DNA of 64,000 nt from Octopus vulgaris. Taxonomy: Eukaryota. The notes below the pieces were generated by a model, which did no database searches, was not told where the DNA came from, and saw nothing but the letters and a program-made list of their open reading frames with translations. The stretch covers positions 103,354,001 to 103,418,000 of the forward strand of contig OX597814.1 in assembly GCA_951406725.2 (NCBI GenBank), written 5' to 3'. Shown piece after piece: positions 25,101 to 63,159 of the stretch. A program made the position numbers and the translations under genes. Position 1 is the first letter of the stretch; each line of letters starts with the position of its first letter.

Positions 25101-28100
25101 TGAGCATTTGCCACATACAAAAACTATCTTCCCAGTTAGCCTTCCTTTGATATTGCTGCATCTTTTATGTGTCCATAGCTTACACTGGGTACATTTTATA
25201 GAGTTTCTACCTACGCCTTTTCAAAAATCGAGCAGGGCCAAATACCTGAAGGGATTTGTGGTTTGTCTGCCTGCCTACTTATTAAGACTTTGGTTTTTGC
25301 TAGGTTAACTCTAAGGCCTTTCAATTCTAGACCTTGCTACCACACCTGAAACTTCTCTTCTAGTTCTGATAGTGACTCAGCAATTACAACAGGGTCATCA
25401 GCATAGAGAAGTTCCCAGGGGCAGCCTGTCTTGAATTCATTCCTCTGTTATTGCCTGGAGGACTATGATGAATAAGAAGGGGGCTGAGGACTGATCCTTG
25501 GTGGATCCCTACTCCTACCCAAAATTCTTCACTGTACTTGTTGCCAACCCTCACCTTACTGACAGCATCCCTGTACATGGCTTGTACAGCTCTTACTAAC
25601 CATTCATCTATCCCTAGTTTCTGCAGTGACCACCAGAAAAGGTATCTGGGGACCCTATCAAAGGCTTTCTTTATGTCAATGAGAACCAAGTACAGAAGCT
25701 TATCTTTGGCTAGGTATTTCTCCTGTAGCTGTCTTACCAGGAATATAGCATCAGTGGTGCTTTTCCCTGGCACAAACCCAAACTGCATCTCACCTAGACT
25801 GACTCTCTCCCTAATTAGTCGGGCTATGACGACCCCTCTGGCACCTTTACAGGTGGCACATAAAAAACACCCACTACACTCGCGGAGTGGTTGGCGTTAG
25901 GAAGGGCATCCAGCTGTAGAAACACTGCCAGACTAGACTGGAGCCTGGGGCAGTCCCGAGCTCCCCAGACCCCGGTCGAAACCGTCCAACCCGTGCTAGC
26001 GCGGAAAACGGACGTTAAACGATGATGATGATGATGATCCAATAACTTGACACCTGTAATTAAGTGGATCTAATTGCATCACCTTTACCTTTGTAGCAGT
26101 TGACTATGGTGCTGCTACACCAGTCATTGGGCATGACTCCTTCATGTATCTTATCACCTGGTTGACTATACAGGTGACTAGACTATAGCTAACACCGCCA
26201 GATATTTTAAGCATCTCTGTTGTGATTCCTGATGAGCCGGGGGCTTTCCCTATCTTCATACCCTTAATTGCTTTATCTACCAAGGTACTGTCAATTCTGA
26301 TAGCTGGTCTCTCTGTTGCGTCGACATGTTGTTAATCCTAAACAATGGTTAGATTGTTAAACCTGATCAGGCAGACTTATGGTCAAAGTTAATCCAGCCA
26401 TGACTGCCTCATCTTATAGTGTATCTAGGACTACAATGTTTTTTTCTAGTGTTTTAGGTGACATGTTTTGTTGGTAATGGTGTAATAGATAGCTAAAGAC
26501 ATCCAAATGAACTTTATTGGTTCCTCTATTGATGGAATATAGATTTGTTAGAAACTGGGTGTGTCTTAGCTCCAGCAGTAGATGAGGCAAGTTTGGAGTC
26601 AGTTAGGTTTGCAAGGTGAATATTGATAATATTAAAATGTTTTGTTGGTCATGTACCGAGGTGGGATCTCTAAATATTTGGATTGGTGATTCAGTCAGTT
26701 CCAACATATTGGTTGTTTGGTTGGTAGTTTCACAACAGTAGTAACATTCTGTCCCAAATAAATGCCTACTTTGTCCATTTTTGTGGTTTATTAAAAAAAT
26801 GAAGGGGGAACAGTAATATTGATGGTGAAGTGGAAATGGAAGCCAGAAGTTGAGGTGGTTCTTTTAGCAATCAGAAATCAACACTTCAACATATTGTTTG
26901 ACTACAGATTAATAGCACATTGAACTACGTAACCAAGGTAGCTAAGGGCCAGTTGATGTCAGTCATTGTATTTTAGTTGAGTAGTGAGACTGTTTGAACC
27001 TAGGAGTAATGGGTTTCTGGTTTCCTTTTTATTTGACTCTGCCAGAGTAATGACTATGGTCTCCTCTTTTCACAGTTAGTCAAAACGAATTCAAATCTTT
27101 AAATTATAGAAACAAATTAATAGAAAAATTTGGGCTTGAGGCCAGCAATTTTGAGGGTTTGGGGTTAGTCATGACTATTGACCTCAGCACTAGACTGGTA
27201 CTTTATTATATTAACCCTGCAGTAACAAAAGACAAAGTTGACCTCAGCTGGATTTGGACACAGAACTTGTCAGAGAAAGCTCTGCAAAGCATTTTGTTTT
27301 CCAACATTCTTATGGTTCTGCCTGCTCACCACTACACTTTAGCATTTAAACTGACCATATCCTGTTTTACTTTCAAACTGACTAGATCCAGCCTCTCACA
27401 CCTATCTACAATGTCATTCTAAAAATAAGCAGTCACATCATTGAAATTTTGGAGTTAGAGAATAATGCCTGATTAATTCAAAGCAATGTGAATGAATAAG
27501 CATTGCATTTGACAGTGAGGTCTAAATGCTAAAGGGTTAAGAGACCTGTATGGAAATAACAATATATGTTAAGGCAACTCTCTCTTCAAAACCTCTTTTA
27601 TTGTTTATTCAAAGAGGAAAAGGAAAGATTTTAAAGACATCTCTAAACTGCTGAGGGAAAGCAATCATTGGTGATAATAAAACAGATATTCAATGGCCTC
27701 TAACAGAGGCACAAGGCCTGAGATTGTATTAAGGTGATTGGGAGATTAATAATAATAATAGTCTGAAGAGTTGAACAATGTTGCCTAACACTTGTACCTC
27801 TCACAACTGTTGTTTATACGAGGAACATTGAAATATATTTTATATTTTTGGATATTGGAATGCCTGGCCATTACTGTTTTCAGCATTTTTCAAGCCGTGT
27901 GAAAATTGAGAGGAGTAATTACAATTAAGATTTCATTTTAGTTGTCATTCAAGTTTTATGTTTAAAGAAAATTACTAAGAAATAATAGATTGTTGCTGTT
28001 GAAATATTTGCAGTTCTTTGGTAGGACAACTAGTAAAACCATGAGCATTTGTATGAACTGAGTAAATATTTTTAATGTTAATCATCATCATCATAATCTT

Positions 28101-52904: not shown

Positions 52905-55900
52905 CTAGCAGAATTGCCCGGCGATGCTCGGGGCTGAATTGCTTGAAAGTACTGTTAATGATTGCACTGAATTATGATGATTATTCAGGCAAATATTGAT
53001 ATAAGTTTACGGCGAATGAATGTATTTGTAAGTGTATAGAAAGCCGTGTAAAGGGGTTCCTACCCCCTCGTAGAATGGTGTAAGAATTGAATGCGAGGTT
53101 GCCTTGAAAAGAGCGATGTAATTGTTCTCATAATTGTAAGAATTTGATAGTCGTGGAAGGCGGTGTAAAACGTTCGCAGGTGAATAGGGTCTCTTCGTTT
53201 TCCACGAACGGCAACGGATGTGCTGTTACAAAACTTCATGCTGTGTTAAAAGAGAATGGATGCCCTATATAGGCAAGAAGGGAATGAAGCATGGGTAAGT
53301 AAATATGGGTAATTTATAAAATATAGAACAATAGCATCTACTCACCATATGCCAGACCGGCAAGACTGTAGTGGTGCTGAATAGATGAATCACAACACAG
53401 TGGTGGAGATGTTTTCATTGATGGGCGTTATGATTAAATTTGTTGTTGTATAAAATGATCTGTTGCTTAGTTTCCAAAGTGTATGTTGCGATCGTGTTGT
53501 CGCTTATGTAAACTTTAACATTGAGAGTGTAGATGTAGGGGTAGATGTGTCATGTACGTTGGATATAGAAGATGAGGCTGGTGGTTTGATGATGAATGGA
53601 TAGAAATAGAGGTGAGCGAAGGACAGGTGTTGGTTAAGTGTGAATTAATGTCATGAAACGCCTAAAAATGTAAATGCCATCATAAAAGAGAGTCGTATGT
53701 AAGTGAAAGACTAACGTGTTCGAAAATGATGAAACGTAGTAATCCTATAAAACCTCCTAGTACACAATGTTTTTTGTTTTTCGTTGTGGAACGAATGCGA
53801 AAGCATCACTGTTGCTGCCGACACGCGAGCAGGCAACATAAAGCTGACCATGAGAGAAACATGGCTCTCCCAAATGTATTCCCGCCACAGACAGTATTTG
53901 ACCCTGCGCTTTGTTAATTGACATTGCGAAACATGGCCTTACTGGGAACCGGGACCTCCGAAATATGAAAGGTAGGTCTGCTCCTTGATGGGAAAAGATG
54001 CATCCTAGGTATGAGCACAACGTTGCCTCGACCGCACCCTGTGATAATGGTGGCCTCAATCAGATTGGGAGATAAGGACTTAACGATCAAACGTGTGCCA
54101 GTGCATTGTTTTGGGGGAAGCAAATTTCTAATGAGCATTATAGGGGCACCAACTTTAAGTTTGAGAATGTGTGGTGGTGGTCTGGGGGCTCAAAGGAATT
54201 GAGTACCTCTATTGGATAGTTGATGACGTCCTCTGGGTCAGGAGTTGTATCGATAGACTTATATACATAGACATCCCCAGGAATGAGTTTTAGCATTTCA
54301 TCATTAATATGGTGAACAGTTTTATTCCTCGGGGCCAGAATAGCTCTTTGGCCAATCCAATTCATATTCTGATAATTAGCTTGAAGATCTGGGAACACTG
54401 CATCTCTGAGATCAGAAGACGTTTTAACAATGGTACAAATGGAATCGATGGCAATATTACCACTTTCATCCCCTGGTATTTTGCCTTCGCCAAGTGCAAG
54501 GAGGGTGTGAGAAAATGCTGCTGATGTGATATCACGTCGCATATGAGCACGCATATTGGTGTGAAGTTTGAGAGTCTTCACCAGTGACCACAATGTGGAT
54601 GACTTAAGACACGCACTTACTGCATCAGCTGTAGTCCCTTTGGGAATAACGGGAAGTGTTTGTCGGAAGTCCCTTAAAAAAGAAGTGTTATGCCTCCCAT
54701 GGGAGCTGAAGAGTGTTTGATGTCTCTGAGAGATCTATCTAGTGCCTCAAGAGCACCTCTGTGGGCCATCGTGCATTCATCCCAAATGATAAGCTTGCAT
54801 CGTCTGAAAACTTCTGCCTGATCGGAGCTGTTACTGATGTTGCAAGTTGGTGTCTCAGTCTTCGCTAAGTCAAGCGGGAGCTTGAAAGTGGAGTGAGCTG
54901 TCCTGCCGCCTGGCAAGAAAGTAGCCGCAATTCCAGATGATGCCACAGCTAGGGCAATGCTTTGTGTTCGCCTAATCTTAGCCAATATTAATTAGTTGAC
55001 AAAAGTTTTCCCAGTGCCCCCAGGAGCGTCCAGGAAAAAAATCCCCTCAGCTTTGGCCCGGACTGAATTAACAACGGAGTTGTAAGCGAACTTCTGTTCT
55101 GGAAGGAGCTTTGGCTCATTGTCGGCTATGTACTCGGCAAGCTCGTCAACATTAAAACATGTCTCACGCAGCAAATGTGAAGACAGAGTGTTTGTGCCTT
55201 CCCGGTTTGTTGAAGGTAGGCCATAGACCGGCAAGGTACTACCGCCCATATCAAGTACAGTATCTTCGAACGTAGTTTGTTACCACACAGCCACACCTGC
55301 CCCTATGCATGTGTGTGTGTGTGTGTGTGTGCGTATGTGTGTATGGGTAGATATATTATGCATGTATATATATGTGTATATATATATGTGTACATATTAC
55401 ATGTAAATCTATATATATACATCTATACATAAAATACAAAATACAAAGTTATATCTTGATATCGCTAGTGATAACAATACTCAAAATATATAACAGACTG
55501 GAATTGTAGGCCCGTCTCTTGCAATTTCGATCAATTGGATCTTGTCCTCCCCTTGTATAGAAGTGTACGGCTGCAGCGAAATTCATATTTGGACTTTCTT
55601 CTATCGAAGGCATTTTAATAAAAATGCTTCCGTAAAGACGGTGAAAATATTGTCAATTTCTCCAAACAGGGACACAATTCAATTTTTAAACAATAACCAA
55701 AGCCCCTTCTCCGAAAGGGGGAGGGTTACGGTTTATAATTATTTAACAAATGCAACACAACAACGTTTCCCTGACGAGGAACCAACAAACGTGATTACAA
55801 TAGTCAAACAGTAATAATAATAACAACAAACCTTTTTAATTTATCCCCATTTATGTGAAACCACTTATTCAAGTTCAAGTCTTTGATGCAATTTTATACG

Positions 55901-56360
55901 AATTGCTAATACACACACGCACACACACACACACATAATAAAGGTGAAAAATTGAATATTAATTTGATTAATATGAATTGAAACCAGTGGTGTAGCATAT
56001 AAGACCATAGCGGATCTTCCTCTAGCAAAAAGGATGACCAGTATTAATGGCTCATCCCTGTTATATAAATACTTTCACTTTAATAGTTTCACACTTGCAA
56101 AGAGAAAGTAGGAGAAAGTGTCGTGGTAATAGCAGGAGTAAACCACTTGAAATGAGAGAGGGAAATCGTAAAATATTGAATTTTCTCGAATTTTTGCTTA
56201 ATTGGGGGTCAAATTAAAAAAACTTTACATGCCATGAACCAATCGAATCTACTTGGAAAAATCATAGGTAAATTCTAATTGAAGAAATTCTATATTGTAG
56301 AATTGTATTAAAAAGAAATATGGGAACAGGCAGAGAAAATCTGCCTTTTATCATAAGAGA
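52905..56360 (-). mobile_element. Helitron retaining a frameshifted Pif1-family helicase
   Basis: GIFFLDAPGGTGKTF, AVASSGIAATFLPGGRTAHSTFKLP, IIWDECTM, GDFRQTLPVI, AILAPRN, GTRLIV, CFAMSINKAQGQ, FSHGQLYVACSRV. Minus-strand 3' end cccgagcatcgccggg hairpin then CTAG|T at 52905; A|TC 5' end at 56360. Confidence 0.92.
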
Positions 56361-56677
56361 TTTACACGCACACACACATACAGAGTATATATATATATAT
56401 ATATATATTTACACGCACACACACATACAGAGTGTATATATATATACTCATTACTACCACTTTTCTCGGTTTCTCTTACTGAGGAATGTTAAGGCGCCAA
56501 AAAAAGTGTCTAGAAGTCTGATAGAGGTCGATACTGAGCAGATAAAAACTTTTCACACTTTTTACCGTCAGTGAACAACATAGTTTTCTCCAAAATAAAC
56601 TGCCATGAAATTGCCCTTCAAAGTTAAAATATAATACAAACAACATATTTGAAAAATCGTAAAGTTTGTTTGTGGAG

Positions 56678-56717
<40 letters not shown>

Positions 56718-56720
<3 letters not shown>

Positions 56721-57007
56721 ACTAGAACTGTTTCATTCAAGAGAAATCTTCAGGAAGCTAGTTAACAAGAATTGTATTGCCATTTATACATTTAGGCAGG
56801 TTTAAAGGGGTGTTGGTGGGGGACTTTTGGGGGTAGGCATAGCGCAAAATATCATACTTGGGGGAGTGGTCAAGGAGTCAGTGTTAAATTAGATAGAAGA
56901 ATAAATAAAAAAATAAAAAAATATATATATATAAAAAAATGTATATATATATATGTGTATGTGTGTGTGTATATATATATATATATGTATATGTATATAT
57001 ATGTGTA

Positions 57008-57082
<75 letters not shown>

Positions 57083-57456
57083 AAGTTTATATGTATGTAT
57101 CCGTCTATATAATAGGTAACTGCACGTACATATACTTAATATTTATTATTTATTTTTTGAGTATGCATGTATGAATAACTGCGCGTATATATATTTTACT
57201 ATTTACTTATTTTTAGAGTATGCATGTAAGTATGAATATAAGGAGGCGCGTGTGTGTGTGTGTATGTGTAAGCATAGATATATGTATACTTTTACGCATG
57301 TGTGTACTTATGTGTATATATGGATGCGCGTGTGTGTGTGTGTATGGGTACGCATGTACATGTGTATGTGCGTGTATGTGTATATGAGTATGTATGTATG
57401 TGTGTGCGTATATTTGTATATGTATGTATGTATACGTATGTGTGTGTATGTATATT

Positions 57457-57491
<35 letters not shown>

Positions 57492-57698
57492 ATATGTATG
57501 TATGTATATGTATATGCGTATGTGTATGTATTTGTATGTGTATGCATGCGCGTATATATATGTATGTATATGTATACGTGTGGGTGTGTGTATGTGTATA
57601 AATGTATGTATGTATGGATGTATGGATGTATGTATGTATACGTATGTATGTGTATGTGTGTATATGTATGTATGTGTATGTGTGTATATATATGTATA

Positions 57699-57743
<45 letters not shown>

Positions 57744-58850
57744 GTGTATATTTATGTGATATATATATATACATGTATGTATTTGTATGTAGGTGTATAT
57801 GTATGTGTGTGTATTTATATTTATTGGTGTATATGTATAGACTAGCCTTCTAAGAGTGTAGACATGAATCTGTAGGTACGCGTACGTATGTGTATATACG
57901 TGAATGTATGTAGATGTATGTATGTATGAACATAACGCGTGCGTGCGTGTATGTGTATGAGTGTACGAATGAGTGAGTGTACCTGCTAAAGAGTGTGCGT
58001 GAGTGAATGAGTGCTTGTTTTCCAGTAGACAGATAAATGGACTGGCTGTCATAGCCAAGATGTTTGTGACCAGCGGTCAAAGATAACAAAAGTAATAAAT
58101 GAAGATAATAAAATTAAAATTAGGGAATGGGTCTGTATTTGTATGTGTATATATATGTGTGTATGTGTAGGTATGCATAGGTACACATATGTATATATAT
58201 ATATATATATATGTATGTATATGTATGTGTGTGTATATATGTGTGTATGTGTATATATGTGTATATAGGGACTAGTGTGCTGTGTGTGCATGTGTGTGTG
58301 TGGATATGTGTGTGTATGCGTGTATGTGTGTATGTGTGTGTATGTGTATATATATTTTTCTGTGTGTATATGTATGTGTAAGTGTATATATATGTATATA
58401 TATGTGTGTGTGTGTATGTGTGTATGTATATGTATATATGTTTGTATGTGTGTGTATATATGTATACATATGTGCATAGGTATAAGTGAGAATCTCCTTA
58501 TTTACCTAAAACTCTATTCCCTTTTTTTTATATATATTTTTTTTATATATATATATATTTATTTTTTTATTTATTCTTCTATCTAATTTAACACTGACTC
58601 CTTGACCACTCCCCCAAGTATGATATTTTGCGCTATGCCTACCCCCAAAAAGTCCCCCACCAACACCCCTTTAAACCTGCCTAAATGTATAAATGGCAAT
58701 ACAATTCTTGTTAACTAGCTTCCTGAAGATTTCTCTTGAATGAAACAGTTCTAGTCCTGTAGAAGCTCCTTCTATATAATAAATTAATTTTACTCTGCTA
58801 TGTATTGAGTACCTTATTTACTGTGGTTAACCCCGAATCAACCCGGGACC

Positions 58851-58853
<3 letters not shown>
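56718..58853 (+). mobile_element. Non-autonomous Penelope-like element with inverted terminal copy and microsatellite-rich interior
   Basis: 56718-~56940 is a near-perfect inverted copy of ~58535-58758; carries a hammerhead motif; (TA)n on both flanks; no RT ORF. Confidence 0.7.
58717..58767 (+). ncRNA. Type I hammerhead ribozyme (minimal, Penelope-type)
   Basis: agcttc CTGAAGA t-ttc-tctt-gaa-t GAAA cag-ttctagtc-ctg TA gaagct; stem I 6 bp; predicted cleavage after GUA at 58761. Confidence 0.8.
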
Positions 58854-58884
<31 letters not shown>

Positions 58885-59033
58885 AATTAAGGACTGCACA
58901 CGAAAAGTGGACAGTCAACATGCTAGATATAGACGTCAAATCGCCATTCTCCACAAAAAGTTTATGTTCTCAGATCAAACTCAGCAAAACCAAAGCAATA
59001 AACAAGTGAAAAATATACGAAATAAATATTTAC

Positions 59034-59098
59034 CCATGTACTAAATTTGGTTTCAGCTGTTATTTTCTGCAAGGAAAAGTGCAGCATCATCAGCATGG
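59034..59098 (-). ncRNA. Type I hammerhead ribozyme (minus-strand copy)
   Basis: Reverse complement of 59724-59788 with two substitutions (one in stem II, one in stem III); core intact. Confidence 0.8.
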
Positions 59099-59723
59099 TC
59101 CCATATAAAATGTAATTTGCTGTACTATATGCCAACACGACACCAAAATATCGCGTGCATGGAGTACGGCCTATTACATTTGAAATATATATTTCAAATG
59201 CCTCTACTTTTGGCGCGGTGAGACCCGGGAAAACTAGCCTGCAGCTAATAGTTAGCAGCAGTTAATTTATCGGTTAGAGAACAAATATTTATAAAATTAA
59301 ATTTAGGGTAAAGATTGATATTTATCAATTAGAACCAATGGTCTAGCATATTAAAGAAAGAATCCGAAGATTAAAATATTTATATATACCAATTAAGGAC
59401 TGCACACGAAAAGTGGACAGTCAACATGCTAGATATAGACGTCAAATCGCCATTCTCCACAAAAAGTTTATGTTCTCAGATCAAACTCAGCAAAACCAAA
59501 GCAATAATTTTTACCCTAAATTTAATTTTATAAATATTTGTTCTCTAACCGATAAATTAACTGCTGCTAACTATTAGCTGCAGGCTAGTTTTCCCGGGTC
59601 TCACCGCGCCAAAAGTAGAGGCATTTGAAATATATATTTCAAATGTAATAGGCCGTACTCCATGCACGCGATATTTTGGTGTCGTGTTGGCATTTAGTAC
59701 AGCAAATTACATTTTATATGGGA

Positions 59724-59788
59724 CCATGCTGATGATGCTGCACTTTTCCTTGCGGAAAATAACAGCTGAAACTAAATTTAGTACATGG
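59724..59788 (+). ncRNA. Type I hammerhead ribozyme
   Basis: ccatg CTGATGA t-gctg-cac-ttttcc-ttgc-ggaaaa-taa-cagc-t GAAA ctaaatttag TA catgg; palindromic stem-loop III; predicted cleavage after GUA at 59783. Confidence 0.88.
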
Positions 59789-60039
59789 GTAAATATTTAT
59801 TTCGTATATTTTTCACTTGTTTATTGCTTTGGTTTTGCTGAGTTTGATCTGAGAACATAAACTTTTTGTGGAGAATGGCGATTTGACGTCTATATCTAGC
59901 ATGTTGACTGTCCACCTTTCGTGTGCAGTCCTTAATTGGTATATATAAATATTTTGATCTTCGGATTCTTTCTTTAATATGCTAGACCACTGGTTCTAAT
60001 TGATAAATATCAATTTTTACCCTAAATTTAATTTAATAA

Positions 60040-62890
<2,851 letters not shown>

Positions 62891-63159
62891 TATATATATA
62901 TATATATATCTGGATACAGTCACTAAGTGGACACAAGCGGGCAAGAATCTGGGTCCAAGGTTCAATCGTGACATGGTTTGTTGTCGCTCTCTTAATCTCT
63001 TAATCTGATTAGCGAGAATTGATTTTAACCCCGAAATGTAAGCTAAGGAAACGCTTTTCCTTTGGTACAGTTGTGATCTGAGTGTTGAGTTGAAGATGTA
63101 ATAAGACTTGGGATATTTGAGTGTTAAATCTTGGAATATCTAAATATTGTGGCCATAGA

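Follow-up and report, generated by a model that had tools for sequence, protein, structure and literature searches.

The window analysed here is a 64,000-nt stretch of the Octopus vulgaris genome (contig OX597814.1, positions 103,354,001 to 103,418,000, numbered from its first letter). Comparison of its sequence with itself revealed a 506-nt repeat that forms two divergent arms within a run of (TA)n, a real feature that agrees with a preliminary description of a unit of ~506 nt in tandem-plus-inverted form. The components of the insertion and its target are the following:

58855-58882, left half of the (TA)n target
58870-59507, minus strand, left arm, 638 nt or 1.26 units
59034-59098, minus strand, second hammerhead copy, core intact, with stem III altered at 59049 and stem II at 59068
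59506-59507, head-to-head (5'-5') junction, where the arms overlap by 2 nt
59506-60043, plus strand, right arm, 538 nt or 1.06 units
59506-60011, plus strand, one complete non-coding 506-nt unit delimited by self-comparison, without an open reading frame (ORF) of at least 150 aa
59724-59788, plus strand, type I hammerhead, with CTGATGA at 59729-59735, GAAA at 59768-59771 and a palindromic stem III at 59772-59781
59786-59851, plus strand, U-rich tract (57-65% U), with a hot spot of 5' truncation (unit 318-346) at its 3' edge
59939-59952, plus strand, site E1, the first fixed 3' end, which includes a short TA run matching the target
59953-60043, plus strand, tail that extends from E1 to E2 over ~91 nt and occurs at a single end of the insertion
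60041-60158, right half of the (TA)n target

The left arm consists of unit positions 316 to 506 followed by 1 to 447, and its 3' end is site E1; the right arm consists of positions 1 to 506 followed by 1 to 32, and its 3' end is a second site, E2. Both 3' ends enter (TA)n. Nine mismatches separate the arms along the 638-nt arm (98.6% identity), and when a distance of 0.09 is equated with 25 million years, a calibration quoted in PMC13282606, this divergence of ~1.4% would place the insertion very roughly 2 million years ago. The unit is non-coding and has no long terminal repeats, GC content is 0.33 across 58001-60000, and no ORF of at least 150 aa overlaps the two-armed feature. Furthermore, an ORF with reverse transcriptase (RT) and GIY-YIG endonuclease, the criterion for an autonomous Penelope-like element (PLE), is absent from the family, both in the window and at the sampled loci described below.

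Other mobile sequences surround the insertion. Its left neighbour (56715-58857) is an inverted, ORF-less remnant of a Hydra-type PLE, family E of the set described below; the 506-nt insertion sits in the TA run at the end of this remnant, which carries a hammerhead of its own (58718-58766) and whose minus arm falls short of the predicted ribozyme cut by a few bases and does not stop at either of the usual ends. A PIF1 helicase fragment (Helitron-like) lies at 54138-54734 and a reverse transcriptase fragment at 25384-25896. The ORF at 61994-62803 had no match in Pfam; we presume it to be Helitron-like.

A descriptor scan of the entire window located three hammerhead-like sites; each arm contains one of them, and the third belongs to the left neighbour. 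The plus-strand copy of the unit contains the CUGANGA, GAAA and UH core elements and the three helices, with helix I open, that define type I. Its stem I is CCATG/CATGG, its stem III is CTAAATTTAG and the predicted cut falls after 59783. For 59720-59792 the three-helix fold has the lowest predicted energy, and it is also part of the minimum-energy structure of the whole unit treated as a circular molecule (z -3.6 against 60 shuffles); co-folding predicts that the palindromic helix III pairs between two copies. Both hammerheads had been described as intact and endowed with a palindromic stem III, and likened to minimal type I hammerheads. Both cores are indeed intact and the plus copy has the palindrome, but in the minus copy (59093-59039) the change at 59049 turns stem III into CCAAATTTAG and abolishes the palindrome; the change at 59068 lies in stem II, and a structure other than the hammerhead has the lowest predicted energy for this copy. 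The ribozyme is also not minimal, since helix III has up to 4 pairs (3-4) and helix II is long. Rfam hammerhead models matched neither 56000-63000 at E 1 nor 59690-59820 at E 10; the other Rfam matches were microRNA models on TA/TG repeats, below threshold.

Variation among copies shows that the predicted hammerhead fold is conserved in the family. In 20 ribozyme variants chosen across subfamilies, 8 of 21 pairs were altered on both sides by compensatory change and 97.6% of cells were paired, compared with 26-41% in slid controls. This level of covariation was reached by none of 500 shuffles, a count that does not translate into a probability because the variants are related. The core letters were invariant in the 20 variants, as the preliminary description had required, and the palindromic loop III varied across subfamilies.

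The window copy belongs to a young, dispersed and non-coding family of hammerhead-bearing repeats. A genome-wide count (2.8 Gb, 227 contigs), one of the checks proposed for the family, gave 2,137 exact matches to a 24-mer of the unit and none to the control. A hammerhead pattern matched 654 times as opposed to 4 times when reversed, so hammerheads occur more often than expected by chance; the variant found in the window matched 43 times. We sampled the 55 loci that hold the first 100 matches to the 24-mer on contig C1, a sample that requires unit positions 375-398 in one arm of each locus, and by scaling this ratio we arrive at roughly 1,200 loci for a family of about a thousand copies. Units of the subfamilies measure 501-512 nt and are 82-99% identical to that of the window. 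Tandem arrays have hammerheads spaced 505-512 nt apart, and the window itself has one hammerhead per arm. Many units are identical, both within and between loci, which indicates very recent activity and bears out the claim of youth made from the window alone. Among the sampled loci, the hammerhead core was kept in only 22 of 55 and a length of 506 nt was reached in only 18 of 55. Contigs from two runs that are presumed, as a guess, to be RNA cover most of the unit; these contigs show neither strand nor circles, and none of them crosses the junction of the window copy, an absence that carries no weight.

Two further non-coding families are related to the 506-nt family. Both possess a distinct hammerhead, form tandems and inverted arms, and show two ends. 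The first, with a unit of 538 nt (for example L173:1108-1645, contig C1, near 180.56 Mb), is colinear with and 64-69% identical to the 506-nt unit; it is older, has different hammerhead stems and the same two ends, with 2,319 candidates at first look. The second, with a unit of 567 nt (L337, L247:5330-5745), is very young, aligns to the 506-nt unit at z about 5, has ends 91 nt apart and yielded 2,306 candidates at first look. Several leads were discarded along the way. A hammerhead variant that looked solitary turned out to be another subfamily of the unit, with a period of 505 nt; a search pattern meant for the 506-nt family matched the 538-nt sister instead; a 2.5-kb spacing between tail motifs resulted from two separate insertions; and a spliced form downstream of the ribozyme was rejected, since no sampled arm lacked that stretch. 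Additional, unrelated short inverted repeats with hammerheads occur in TA runs (L302, L307, L299, L257), and the genome seems rich in families of this type.

The two-armed architecture of the insertion recurs among the sampled loci. Two head-to-head arms were found at 46 of the 55 loci, with 3' ends facing outward in all 46, and the remaining 9 were single-armed or odd. The outer ends are fixed: E1 lies at unit position ~447 and E2 at position ~32 of the next turn, ~91 nt further on. One end of each kind was present at 44 of the 46 two-armed loci, the other two combining E2 with an end cut short, and not one of the 46 was like-ended (E1 with E1 or E2 with E2). Runs of (TA)5 or longer abutted 89 of 92 arm ends, compared with 8.5% of random places in the same loci; note that a target duplication cannot be read inside (TA)n. 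The inner (5') ends, in turn, are variable, with 37 of 92 falling at unit 318-346, a hot spot located at the 3' border of the stretch of the unit that is richest in U; in the window the left arm terminates at unit 316. This location makes stalling on weak rU:dA pairs a plausible cause. Only 2 of 92 inner ends fell within 272-286, the region of the predicted cut, and linear monomers cut by the ribozyme are consequently not visible as the end of the template. The preliminary description had explained permuted ends by copying of a circular or multimeric template. That argument does not hold for the outer ends, which are two fixed 3' ends ~91 nt apart, and only the 5' ends vary.

An inverted, 5'-truncated copy, a tail at one end and a bias towards (TA)n are known attributes of Penelope-like insertions (PMC8557442, PMC3846280, PMC8969392), and the inverted form noted at the outset is ordinary PLE insertion structure (PMC3846280, PMC8557442). 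The two-armed insertions with a tail at one end thus constitute a PLE footprint, with a tail longer than usual. The 506-nt family is very probably a non-LTR retrozyme, a non-autonomous passenger mobilised by a PLE. Its insertion would proceed as follows. Tandem loci would be transcribed and their hammerheads would excise 506-nt monomers, which are likely to be ligated into circles. A PLE protein, probably acting as a dimer, would break a TA run on both strands, and the two resulting DNA ends would serve as primers for cDNA synthesis along the RNA, the first starting from E1 and the second from E2. Synthesis would often stall as it ran into the U-rich tract, near unit 330, or would circle the template and generate multi-unit arms. 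Finally, the two cDNA ends would be joined head-to-head, often at short palindromes.

The sequences of units within loci speak to the nature of the template. At multi-unit loci, alleles shared between loci were fixed in every unit, both arms included, in 19 instances, with 9 single-unit exceptions (this count kept 107 of 109 segments and left out two as chimeric). Among locus-private changes, 14 were common to all units (some across both arms), 66 were limited to a single unit and 6 were partial. The homogeneity of units within a locus fits a circular template, which we modestly favour. The same family and the same kind of enzyme could also operate on uncut linear transcripts of tandem loci, with no role for circles and the ribozyme serving another step, and this deserves to be held as a genuine possibility, if one on the doubtful side. 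Unprocessed RNA was the main substrate of an anole PLE in vitro (PMC11167929), tandems with a period of 4,271 are also formed by an autonomous PLE of this genome (family B), and the many arms that stop near unit 330 could mark the 5' end of an RNA. A homogeneous source array would furthermore yield homogeneous daughters. However, arrays of 5-6 identical units carry locus-private changes in every unit and across both arms, and alleles shared between loci that were found in at least two units of a locus were always in all of its units. A linear template also gives an array no way to lengthen, yet the closed unit persists across 64-100% divergence, and the paired positions of the hammerhead covary.

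The junctions between arms bear on how the second arm originates. Junctions were symmetric within 10 nt at 24 of 46 loci, compared with 7.1 expected by permutation, several of them at short palindromes, and the E1 arm was contained in the E2 arm at 32 of 46 loci (the reverse held at 2 of 46). Both patterns would be expected if the inverted arm arose by fold-back self-priming, in which a cDNA turns and copies itself back, as proposed for rotifer Penelope (PMC3846280). That model covers up to 34 of the 46 loci. At the other 12, the window among them (638 versus 538 nt), neither arm contains the other; 9 of these cases are clear and 3 are borderline or rearranged. Two cDNAs that stall at one hot spot, or that anneal at a palindrome, would also give symmetric junctions. 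We consider fold-back unlikely as the source of the inverted arm and retain separate priming of the two arms at E1 and E2.

A passenger of this kind implies an autonomous partner. Protein searches identified five autonomous PLE families (A to E), whose ORFs range from 722 to about 1,200 aa, and fragments of further families are present beyond these five. Families A, B and D are presumably Neptune-like, judging by their motifs. A CxCX5C linker, as reported for the Hydra clade (PMC8557442), is present in families C and E. Two 3' ends in (TA)n were found in four of the five families, with end spacings of ~36 nt in A, 40-45 nt in B, ~78 nt in C and ~73 nt in E; a single end was seen in family D. 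No sequence shared by the unit and any of the five families was detectable (best z 1.4), and no PLE ORF adjoined unit copies at the 8 loci checked, 7 of them single-armed. The earlier proposal that the family uses a Penelope RT finds support in the footprint of its insertions, and the autonomous element sharing its ribozyme that the proposal had sought was not found among the five families. Our best guess for the partner is a Hydra-type PLE, because tails of Hydra-type elements are long in this genome and their target fits.

Additional observations were made on these autonomous families. The young families with Hydra-clade motifs (L205, L305) encode proteins of 842 and 722 aa and have tails of 73-78 nt, which exceed the published 30-40 nt. 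A weak profile match in the 3' region of family E was rejected as kinship, being a captured piece of the 567-nt family, ~200 nt of which is carried there in family E copies. In several copies of families A and B (L127, L130, L143), an upstream ORF overlaps the 775-aa RT-endonuclease ORF in another frame, and one copy of family B has a single ORF of 1,199 aa; a programmed frameshift is possible. The hammerhead core of family B reads CCGAAGA.

Little room is left for a further view, in which the units derive from solo pLTR pieces of an autonomous PLE and became satellite DNA through subsequent amplification in place. The birth of satellites from a PLE terminus has been discussed (10.64898/2026.07.22.740005), and a degree of local duplication is suggested by a locus at which three changes are common to 2 of its 5 units. 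Set against this, the unit closes on itself without an ORF, both arms hold arrays that end at E1 or E2, the 8 loci checked lacked an adjoining PLE ORF and the five autonomous families lack homology to the unit, so that an origin by amplification in place appears very improbable. A MITE-like DNA transposon or an assembly artefact, which inverted arms and TA flanks might bring to mind, can be dismissed as scarcely credible, since a fixed tail distinguishes one end from the other, every locus has its own lengths and junctions, units are in tandem, substitutions separate the arms and the two-armed form recurs at 46 of the 55 loci with differing junctions.

We tentatively advance a more specific proposal, to which we give somewhat less than an even chance. 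A dimer of a Penelope protein may copy a small circular ribozyme RNA from two fixed starts simultaneously, with one subunit per cut strand, rolling round the template, and a clan of at least three related families (506, 538 and 567 nt) may have lost visible kinship to its partner and kept a tail of similar length. If so, the rule of one E1 and one E2 end (44 of 44 complete two-armed loci), the non-nested arms and the identical units would be a genomic record of PLE integration, an unsolved process; the mechanism of tandem and inverted insertion by PLEs is named as an open problem in PMC8557442. They would also be the first evidence to link retrozyme circles directly to PLEs at the level of mechanism. 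Mobilisation of animal retrozymes by PLEs has rested on co-occurrence and pLTR similarity (10.64898/2026.07.22.740005); the 506-nt family displays the PLE footprint on the retrozyme itself, and in numbers. A 506-nt template with two mapped start sites is suited to an in vitro test of a two-site dimer. The added value of the family resides in its strict rule of end pairing and its small template; as a repeat family alone, it is ordinary.

The family is of a kind already described, that of animal retrozymes as non-autonomous PLEs (10.64898/2026.07.22.740005; PMC7229834). Animal non-LTR retrozymes yield circular RNAs and their use of PLEs has been proposed (PMC7229834), and vertebrate retrozymes have been tied to PLE pLTRs (10.64898/2026.07.22.740005). 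Like the family described here, metazoan non-LTR retrozymes consist of tandem units that are low in GC, lack coding capacity and contain a single type I hammerhead; they are found dispersed in forms from monomers up to multimers and have been proposed to be non-autonomous PLE derivatives (PMC7229834; 10.64898/2026.07.22.740005). A length of 506 nt is within their range of 51-972 bp (10.64898/2026.07.22.740005) and exceeds the 170-400 nt of the retrozyme RNAs validated in 2020 (PMC7229834). In contrast, inverted arms, a tail and two fixed ends, all present here, are not described for retrozymes in the available parts of these two papers. The 35 species covered by 10.64898/2026.07.22.740005 include no mollusc, and an octopus repeat annotation with 190 Penelope-like families makes no mention of ribozymes in its available text (PMC13282606). 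We found no description of the 506-nt family, of a cephalopod retrozyme or of a retrozyme with a PLE footprint; the repeat library of PMC13282606 or the supplements of PMC8557442 and 10.64898/2026.07.22.740005 may hold the family.

The predicted ribozyme is close to the PLE-type hammerheads of PMC4209133, with which it shares a 5-bp helix I, a helix II of increased size and a helix III whose palindrome allows two copies to pair; in most subfamilies here, an unpaired base precedes stem II, as in that class. Unlike the minimal members of that class, it has a helix III of 3-4 pairs and may fold as a monomer. The U-U pair at the base of its helix II is also found in axolotl HHR_Amex2 (10.64898/2026.07.22.740005; PMC7229834). 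Two published observations count against the reading proposed here: of 9 dimers of Xenopus retrozymes, 8 failed to cleave (10.64898/2026.07.22.740005), and the anole PLE did not require ribozyme cleavage for insertion in vitro (PMC11167929).

With endonuclease-bearing (EN+) Penelope-like elements the family shares 5' truncation, partial tandems, a head-to-head inverted copy, junction palindromes, a one-ended tail and a bias towards (TA)n (PMC3846280, PMC8557442), and non-autonomous elements with multicopy head-to-tail insertions are known from Chlamys (PMC3846280, PMC8557442). It differs from EN+ elements in the absence of an RT-endonuclease ORF, in being a closed repeat that bears a hammerhead, and in its tail of ~91 nt, compared with the 30-40 nt published for Penelope-like elements (PMC3846280, PMC8557442). 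The closest mechanistic parallel is offered by Poseidon of Anolis carolinensis (PMC11167929), for which both strands were cut and extended, two internal start sites bounded the tail and a dimer was predicted. Both systems have two internal starts that bound a tail, an AT-rich target and a hammerhead upstream of the start sites. Extension of both strands, observed in vitro for Poseidon (PMC11167929), is also proposed for the 506-nt family. The starts of Poseidon are adjacent, have no homology to the target and are the same on both strands (PMC11167929), whereas those of the octopus family lie ~91 nt apart, match the target over short TA runs and serve one end of the insertion each.
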